A stretch of 64,000 bases of DNA, from the NCBI RefSeq assembly GCF_056712565.1, contig NZ_CM160072.1. One strand, given 5' to 3'. Positions 17,623-17,895 of the stretch are shown here, piece by piece; position 1 is the first letter of the stretch, and every line of letters starts with the position of its first letter. A model generated the notes under the pieces. The model ran no database searches, was not told where the DNA came from, and worked only from the letters and a program-made list of their open reading frames with translations. The translations under genes and the position numbers were made by a program.

Positions 17623-17895
17623 ATGAAAAAAAGAAATTTCAGCGCAGAGTTTAAACGCGAATCCGCTCAACTGGTTGTTGACCAGAAATACACGGTGGCA
17701 GATGCCGCGAAAGCTATGGATGTTGGCCTTTCCACAATGACAAGATGGGTCAAACAACTGCGTGATGAGCGTCAGGGCAAAACACCAAAAGCCTCTCCGA
17801 TAACACCAGAACAAATCGAAATACGTAAGCTGAGGAAAAAGCTACAACGCATTGAAATGGAGAATGAAATATTAAAAAGGCTACCGCGCTCTTGA
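17623..17895 (+). CDS. insN: IS911 OrfA (InsN) with altered C-terminus
   Basis: [46 protein letters not shown]...; ends ...[11 protein letters not shown] because the A-run at 17874-17878 has 5 A instead of the recalled 6. Confidence 0.75.

Follow-up and report, generated by a model that had tools for sequence, protein, structure and literature searches.

IS911, a member of the IS3 family with its reference copy in Shigella dysenteriae, depends on a translational switch, in which orfA occupies phase 0, orfB occupies phase −1, and the OrfAB transposase arises from −1 frameshifting (PMC2909936). The usual slip motif of the IS3 family is A6G (PMC6211511), and in IS911 a GGAG upstream of the slip site acts as a frameshift stimulator (PMC4066793). 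Polard et al. 1991, a reference in PMC4066793, link AUU initiation to IS911 expression in their title. OrfA regulates IS911 transposition (PMC2909936), truncated transposase forms are named as down-regulators of transposition in the 2006 title of Gueguen et al. cited in PMC6211511, and the transposase acts preferentially in cis, by a factor of about 200 over its activity in trans (PMC5009743). In K-12 MG1655, curators annotate a copy in the KpLE2 region as IS911B, with insO as a pseudogene labelled ‘regulator fragment’.

The stretch analysed here (the window, 64,000 nucleotides of contig NZ_CM160072.1 in RefSeq assembly GCF_056712565.1) carries a defective full-length IS911 on the + strand at 17551–18797, which begins TGAAGTGG and ends CCACTTCA. 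At 1247 bp it is slightly shorter than three intact copies of 1249 bp each, from an S. dysenteriae plasmid (L003), from pWR501 of S. flexneri M90T (L004) and from an E. coli plasmid (L005), which were chosen for an IS911-family transposase CDS annotated as uninterrupted over 1169 nt. The window element is 99.4% identical to intact IS911 and differs from all three copies at seven positions, comprising five substitutions and two one-base gaps in 1249 bp. Its 36-bp terminal repeats are imperfect (24 of 36 positions match) and carry the TG…CA ends of the family. The left repeat (17551–17586, +) has the same sequence as in the intact copies, and the right repeat (18762–18797, +) bears one of the seven differences, 18769 T>G, at position 29 from the tip, where a published right-repeat oligonucleotide gives the reference base (PMC2909936). 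Copies with six A at other loci share this G, so it is a natural variant. Between the repeats, the orfA/orfB organisation of the reference is retained, with an HTH_Tnp_1 domain in the first frame (E = 1.7e-14) and an rve domain in the second (E = 7.5e-32), alongside rve_3 and HTH_21.

The slip site itself is altered. The sequence at 17871–17895 is ATTAAAAAGGCTACCGCGCTCTTGA, of which 17871–17880 reads ATTAAAAAGG, with five A at 17874–17878 (+); all three intact copies read ATTAAAAAAGG, with six. This run is the remnant of the A_AAA_AAG −1 slippery heptamer. The first-pass annotation of this DNA had given six A for IS911 and proposed that one was missing here. The alignment bears this out: none of the three intact copies examined has five, and these database copies, together with secondary papers, form the basis for the six-A reference state. 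A 30-nt pattern spanning the slip site occurs only once within the window, with 0 chance matches expected.

Because the run holds five A and not six, orfA (here orfA′, 17623–17895, +) ends as …EILKRLPRS* at 17895 and orfB falls in the +1 frame. Reading from the ATG at 17623, translation stops at the TGA at 17893–17895, giving a product of 90 aa in place of the native 100 aa, with the five residues RLPRS substituting for the native C-terminal 15. The deletion creates an AGG codon in the orfA frame at 17878–17880 (+), and GGC at 17879 is +1 to this codon; both the RLPRS ending and the +1 placement of orfB were thus read correctly in the earlier annotation. Upstream of the slip site, orfA differs from the intact copies only by two synonymous changes, 17640 T>C and 17709 C>G.

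These frames determine what ribosomal slippage could yield. The earlier claim that OrfAB cannot be made by normal slippage agrees with the computed products, since a −1 slip at the five-A site now enters the old orfA tail and gives the native 100-aa OrfA, not a transposase. Double −1 re-pairing on A_AAA_AGG would need the A-site AGG to re-pair on AAG; a slip of the P-site tRNA alone is possible there, but its destination is again the old orfA tail rather than orfB. Only a +1 slip, from AAA at 17875–17877 to AAA at 17876–17878 and then to GGC, would reach orfB, and its computed product at the five-A site is OrfAB minus Lys86. The AUU codon at 17871–17873 (+), which we take to be the OrfB start, now lies in the frame of the old orfA tail and out of the orfB frame, so separately initiated OrfB would also be lost. 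The surroundings of the site are those of the intact copies, including the Shine-Dalgarno-like GGAG at 17859–17862 (+) and about 90 nt downstream of the A run. A single-sequence RNA fold of 17855–18000 gave no signal above shuffles (z = −0.39), and no Rfam family matched within 17400–19000. As the feature that fails is the −1 slippery heptamer, with five A and orfB in +1 phase, the window copy is a defective IS911 member and not a non-member.

The orfB frame (17879–18901, +, from GGC at 17879; HTH_21, rve and rve_3) retains its DDE codons at 18299, 18479 and 18587 and carries three further lesions on the + strand. At 18318, a C>G change replaces Thr with Arg and was seen only in the window-type allele. 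At 18569, T>A replaces Trp with Arg within the GNC(W/Y)DN motif, immediately upstream of the catalytic Glu; at the matching position, relatives within the window have W (23128–23163) or Y (IS600). The first-pass annotation had also placed a second 1-bp deletion near the 3′ end of orfB, and it is found at 18724–18727, where four C replace the five of the intact copies (CCCCC>CCCC). With this deletion, the terminal ~20 aa of OrfB are replaced and the stop codon is lost, so that orfB reads through the right repeat into flanking DNA, to 18901. A +1-slip product of the window allele would therefore bear both substitutions and a scrambled C terminus, at 425 aa versus 389 aa from the same ATG. Relative to reference IS911, the copy shares the 36-bp repeats, the GGAG and the sequence downstream of the slip site. 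It differs by one A fewer (five against six), one C fewer (four against five), the OrfB substitutions T>R and W>R, a single substitution in the right repeat and two synonymous changes in orfA, and it lacks a target-site duplication.

The same allele recurs well beyond this genome. The 1247-bp element recurs at 100% identity in many E. coli genomes, with at least 16 independent complete genomes in RefSeq whose hosts and sequencing laboratories are unrelated, and in both of those inspected, HS13-1 and NCTC11151, it occupies the same chromosomal site as in the window, in the order nanX–nanY–ythA–adhesin E–MFS fragment / IS911 / DUF2254′–BCCT. PGAP labels this allele ‘IS3-like element IS911 family transposase, frameshifted’. 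Among PLSDB plasmids the doubly deleted variant was absent, except in one 4.9-Mb record filed as a plasmid.

The K-12 strains MG1655 and J53 align to window positions 12426–17884 at 99.96% identity over 5,459 bp with zero gaps, and since the alignment is gapless up to 17884, both carry the same five-A run. IS911B of MG1655 also shares the left junction (…CAGGGC/TGAAGTGG). It differs from the window copy in that IS30D is inserted at 17884/17885, after GGCTAC, and window positions 17885–22236 are missing; the window, in contrast, keeps the whole IS911 together with the DUF2254′, BCCT and IS600 genes. IS30D in K-12 sits 6 bp past the A run, and the 4,352 bp lost there (17884/17885 to 22236/22237) comprise the rest of IS911, DUF2254′, the BCCT transporter and most of IS600. 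This arrangement looks like an IS30-associated adjacent deletion. Because MG1655 curators already annotate the element as the IS911B/insO pseudogene, the finding itself is already known.

We then placed the window allele among those at the same site in other genomes. A left-junction query matched 1437 of 5426 genomes at ≥80% coverage. From evenly spaced rows, we estimate that ~620 genomes carry the full, 100%-identical junction with the five-A site and ~355 are of the IS30-cut K-12 type. Roughly a third of the 1437 (~450–530 genomes) have an IS911 relative of ~87% identity at the same junction, and window-type IS911 is consequently present at the site in ~975 genomes. The loss of the A is therefore old, being common to these ~975. 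The right junction was found in 512 genomes. In an assembly collection, exact matches to the 90-aa OrfA′ occur in 13,559 indexed blocks; 30 contigs were read among thousands, and the same left junction was present in 10 of the 10 distinct contexts returned for the five-A OrfA′. At other loci, elements that share the OrfB variant (L015–L017) have six A.

The ~87%-identical relative raises a separate point. In these ~450–530 genomes, exemplified by Ecol_276 (L033, CP018953, 2621–3000), it is truncated exactly where its own run of six A ends. Genomes carrying it have an identical MFS 3′ flank, and their MFS gene is complete, at 414 aa. Its presence at the same junction reflects either reuse of that junction or recombination inside the IS.

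Exact-protein look-ups combined with genotyping resolve an allelic series at the locus. The form with five A and an intact orfB measures 1248 bp (L011, L014, L018, L019 and L022–L025) and is apparently the majority among full-length carriers. A second form adds 18569A and four C (L026 and L032), and a third combines five A, 18318G, 18569A and four C (the window, L001 and L002); the window allele is thus the most point-mutated among the alleles seen. Other lineages have IS30, IS110, a group II intron or deletions downstream of the A run at the same locus. In three records (L027, L028 and L030), either an insertion of the IS110 family or the reverse transcriptase of a group II intron lies in or just after the same dead IS911. 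The five-A, intact-orfB form is annotated differently from the window allele: in strain EC4 (L022, CP060974, 544–1711; genotype five A and five C), PGAP models it as a ‘programmed frameshift’ transposase, WP_085948656.1, with a CDS of 1168 nt.

The state of the A run is not absolutely fixed, because three of the ~975 genomes with this IS911 at the site have six A there. A six-A junction query matched perfectly in only these three, ECO_1_S, FCI23 and FCI48. The corresponding records (L007, CP065821; L008, CM172721; L009, CM172719) combine six A with five C, and their annotation is that of an intact IS911 with a programmed frameshift. In ECO_1_S (Korea) and FCI48 (Colombia) the elements are identical and fully intact, equalling the common five-A allele plus one A; FCI23 has six A and also carries 18569A. 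Flanks of the six-A genomes show 0–1 differences from those of five-A genomes in 2,150 bp. These genomes may be homopolymer revertants, in which the element would be resurrected, ancestral remnants, or assembly errors and miscalls. We also considered gene conversion, with outer markers of the resident type and inner ones of the intact type, and dropped it once five-A alleles that keep orfB intact proved common there. Reversion, ancestral retention or a miscall is simpler than conversion, since the six-A alleles are a single A away from existing alleles.

The flanks of the window element point to rearrangement. On the left, the 3′ remnant of a gene for an MFS transporter (known in K-12 as yjhE; 17287–17535, +) stops 15 bp ahead of the left repeat; on the right lies a DUF2254 gene (18799–19137, −) whose C-terminal end is cut by IS911. 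No target-site duplication surrounds the window copy, which has GGC on the left (…CAGGGC) and AGA on the right (AGAGAA…). Among the intact copies, L003 lies between two copies of CTGG and L005 between two of GAG, and the pWR501 copy (L004) shows no repeat. Strain MS6193 (L021, 2440–2530) has an uninterrupted DUF2254 gene, preceded on its left by a LysR regulator and a gamma-glutamylcyclotransferase unrelated to the window flank. Given the missing duplication and this unrelated left context, the window IS911 sits on a rearrangement junction, a further sign of an old, heavily rearranged site.

Farther downstream, the window holds additional IS remnants. The BCCT transporter gene (19200–21203) is followed by an IS600 copy (~21351–22507, −), which in the matching genomes carries a RefSeq annotation as an intact element using programmed frameshifting, and then by a 791-bp fragment of an IS911 relative (22572–23362, +). 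The fragment is 96.5% identical to IS911 positions 453–1243, and PGAP assigns it to the ISEc52 family as frameshifted and missing its N terminus. With IS600 lodged between the BCCT gene and this ISEc52-like fragment, the stretch is an IS graveyard. The first-pass annotation had called the element ‘copy 1’; the IS911 at 17551–18797 (+), the sole full-length one in the window, fits that wording, and the implied second copy turns out to be only this 791-bp fragment, which has no slip site. MG1655 curators join the matching piece, ‘IS911B-1’ (insO fragments 2–3), to IS911B as one gene. In the window, the IS911B and IS911B-1 pieces are two separate elements ~3.8 kb apart.

Together, these comparisons lead us to read the window IS911 as a fossil, full-length version of K-12 IS911B that was inactivated at its slippery run and has decayed since (probability about 0.9). 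One A was lost from the six of A_AAA_AAG, most likely by replication slippage, which took orfB out of the −1 frame and into +1. The programmed −1 shift now reaches only the old orfA tail, the zero frame yields the 90-aa OrfA′ ending in RLPRS, and the AUU is left out of the orfB frame as well. With no transposase supplied in cis, the copy would have been frozen in place and subject to neutral decay. The window lineage presumably gained W>R (18569), the 1-bp deletion in the C run (18724–18727) and T>R (18318) afterwards, and other lineages would have gained IS30 with its deletion (K-12), IS110, a group II intron or deletions. That downstream damage differs between lineages agrees with the loss of the A having inactivated the element first and neutral decay having followed. 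The earlier judgement that this copy is probably transposition-defective gains support from the slip frame, the AUU frame, the additional orfB lesions, the single locus in 10 of 10 contexts and the frameshifted flag set by PGAP. Because the inverted repeats are essentially intact, another IS911 could conceivably mobilise the copy in trans on rare occasions.

Three other accounts of the five-A run were weighed against this one. Both one-base losses lie in homopolymers, a classic site of long-read and pyrosequencing errors, and the true genome could in principle have six A and five C with both runs under-called. We regard such an artefact as extremely improbable. The identical 1247 bp recurs at the same locus in many genomes from different laboratories and platforms, MG1655 and J53 also have the five-A run, and the 13,559 indexed blocks of OrfA′ speak in the same direction; a five-A run that is identical in so many independent assemblies, MG1655 among them, is not a read error. 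Moreover, some alleles combine five A with five C, so each run varies on its own, as expected of true mutations. A different proposal accepts the sequence and asks whether OrfA′, with its HTH and most of the leucine zipper, has persisted as a domesticated regulator that damps incoming IS911 in trans. The retained HTH_Tnp_1 domain, the absence of any amino-acid change upstream of the slip site and the ‘regulator fragment’ label given to insO by K-12 curators are compatible with this idea, as is the regulatory role described for OrfA and truncated transposase forms. Two synonymous changes are, however, far too few to demonstrate purifying selection, and the flanks are equally unchanged (0–1 differences in 2,150 bp), so the conservation of orfA is a matter of recency or island spread and not of constraint. 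OrfA′ is also altered in its C-terminal segment, which presumably includes the last leucine-zipper heptad. A domesticated role is accordingly an unlikely explanation for the persistence of orfA′.

The remaining account holds that the site has become a recoding switch, in which AAA_AGG_C, formally similar to the +1 site CUU_AGG_C of yeast Ty1, keeps a low level of transposase. A tRNA-Lys on AAA at 17875–17877 would wait for the rare AGG and slip +1 to give OrfAB without one Lys, and a −1 slip would yield exactly wild-type OrfA; the two computed products conform to this scheme. AGG is the rarest sense codon in the long ORFs of the window (3.7 per 1000), and PGAP does model the five-A, intact-orfB allele as a programmed frameshift. 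The Ty1 site supports ~40% +1 shifting in yeast, and in E. coli rare AGG codons provoke shifting mainly with over-expressed mRNAs (PMC5009743). The likeness to Ty1 is purely formal: P-site codon re-pairing at +1, a rare A-site AGG and GGC as the next +1 codon are shared, but the organism and the tRNA differ, and the window site has the stimulators of a −1 site. Our literature search found no report of +1 shifting at AAA_AGG in E. coli. The conserved GGAG lies ~11–12 nt upstream, a spacing that, according to Larsen et al. 1994, reportedly favours −1 over +1 shifting. In addition, no five-A copy was found at any other locus in the 10 distinct contexts, orfB gathers inactivating lesions after the loss of the A, as expected if it is unselected, and any fusion from the window allele would bear T>R, W>R and a scrambled, extended C terminus. 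A working recoding switch is therefore a very unlikely reading. There is a similarly slim chance that the five-A alleles with an intact orfB are not dead but of very low activity by way of a Ty1-like +1 site, with 5A>6A slippage fully resurrecting them. If true, occasional slippage of this kind may account for the three six-A genomes.

For the reading of the window IS911 as a decayed fossil, the consequences are mainly ones of annotation. The loss of the A is a genuine inherited mutation in an element already annotated as a pseudo-IS, and homopolymer differences at this locus are real mutations and not assembly noise. The programmed-frameshift model that PGAP applies to the five-A, intact-orfB allele is probably a homology-driven over-call affecting many genomes, because −1 slippage cannot make that protein, and it would probably inflate counts of intact IS911. 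The protein accession issued for this allele shows that not every pipeline treats five A as lethal. In the present genome, the window IS911 is a pseudo-element and belongs neither among the active IS elements nor among the sources of transposase. Beyond correct annotation, the feature has little importance; the locus does supply a clean natural series in which an IS decays step by step from an initial lesion at its frameshift site.
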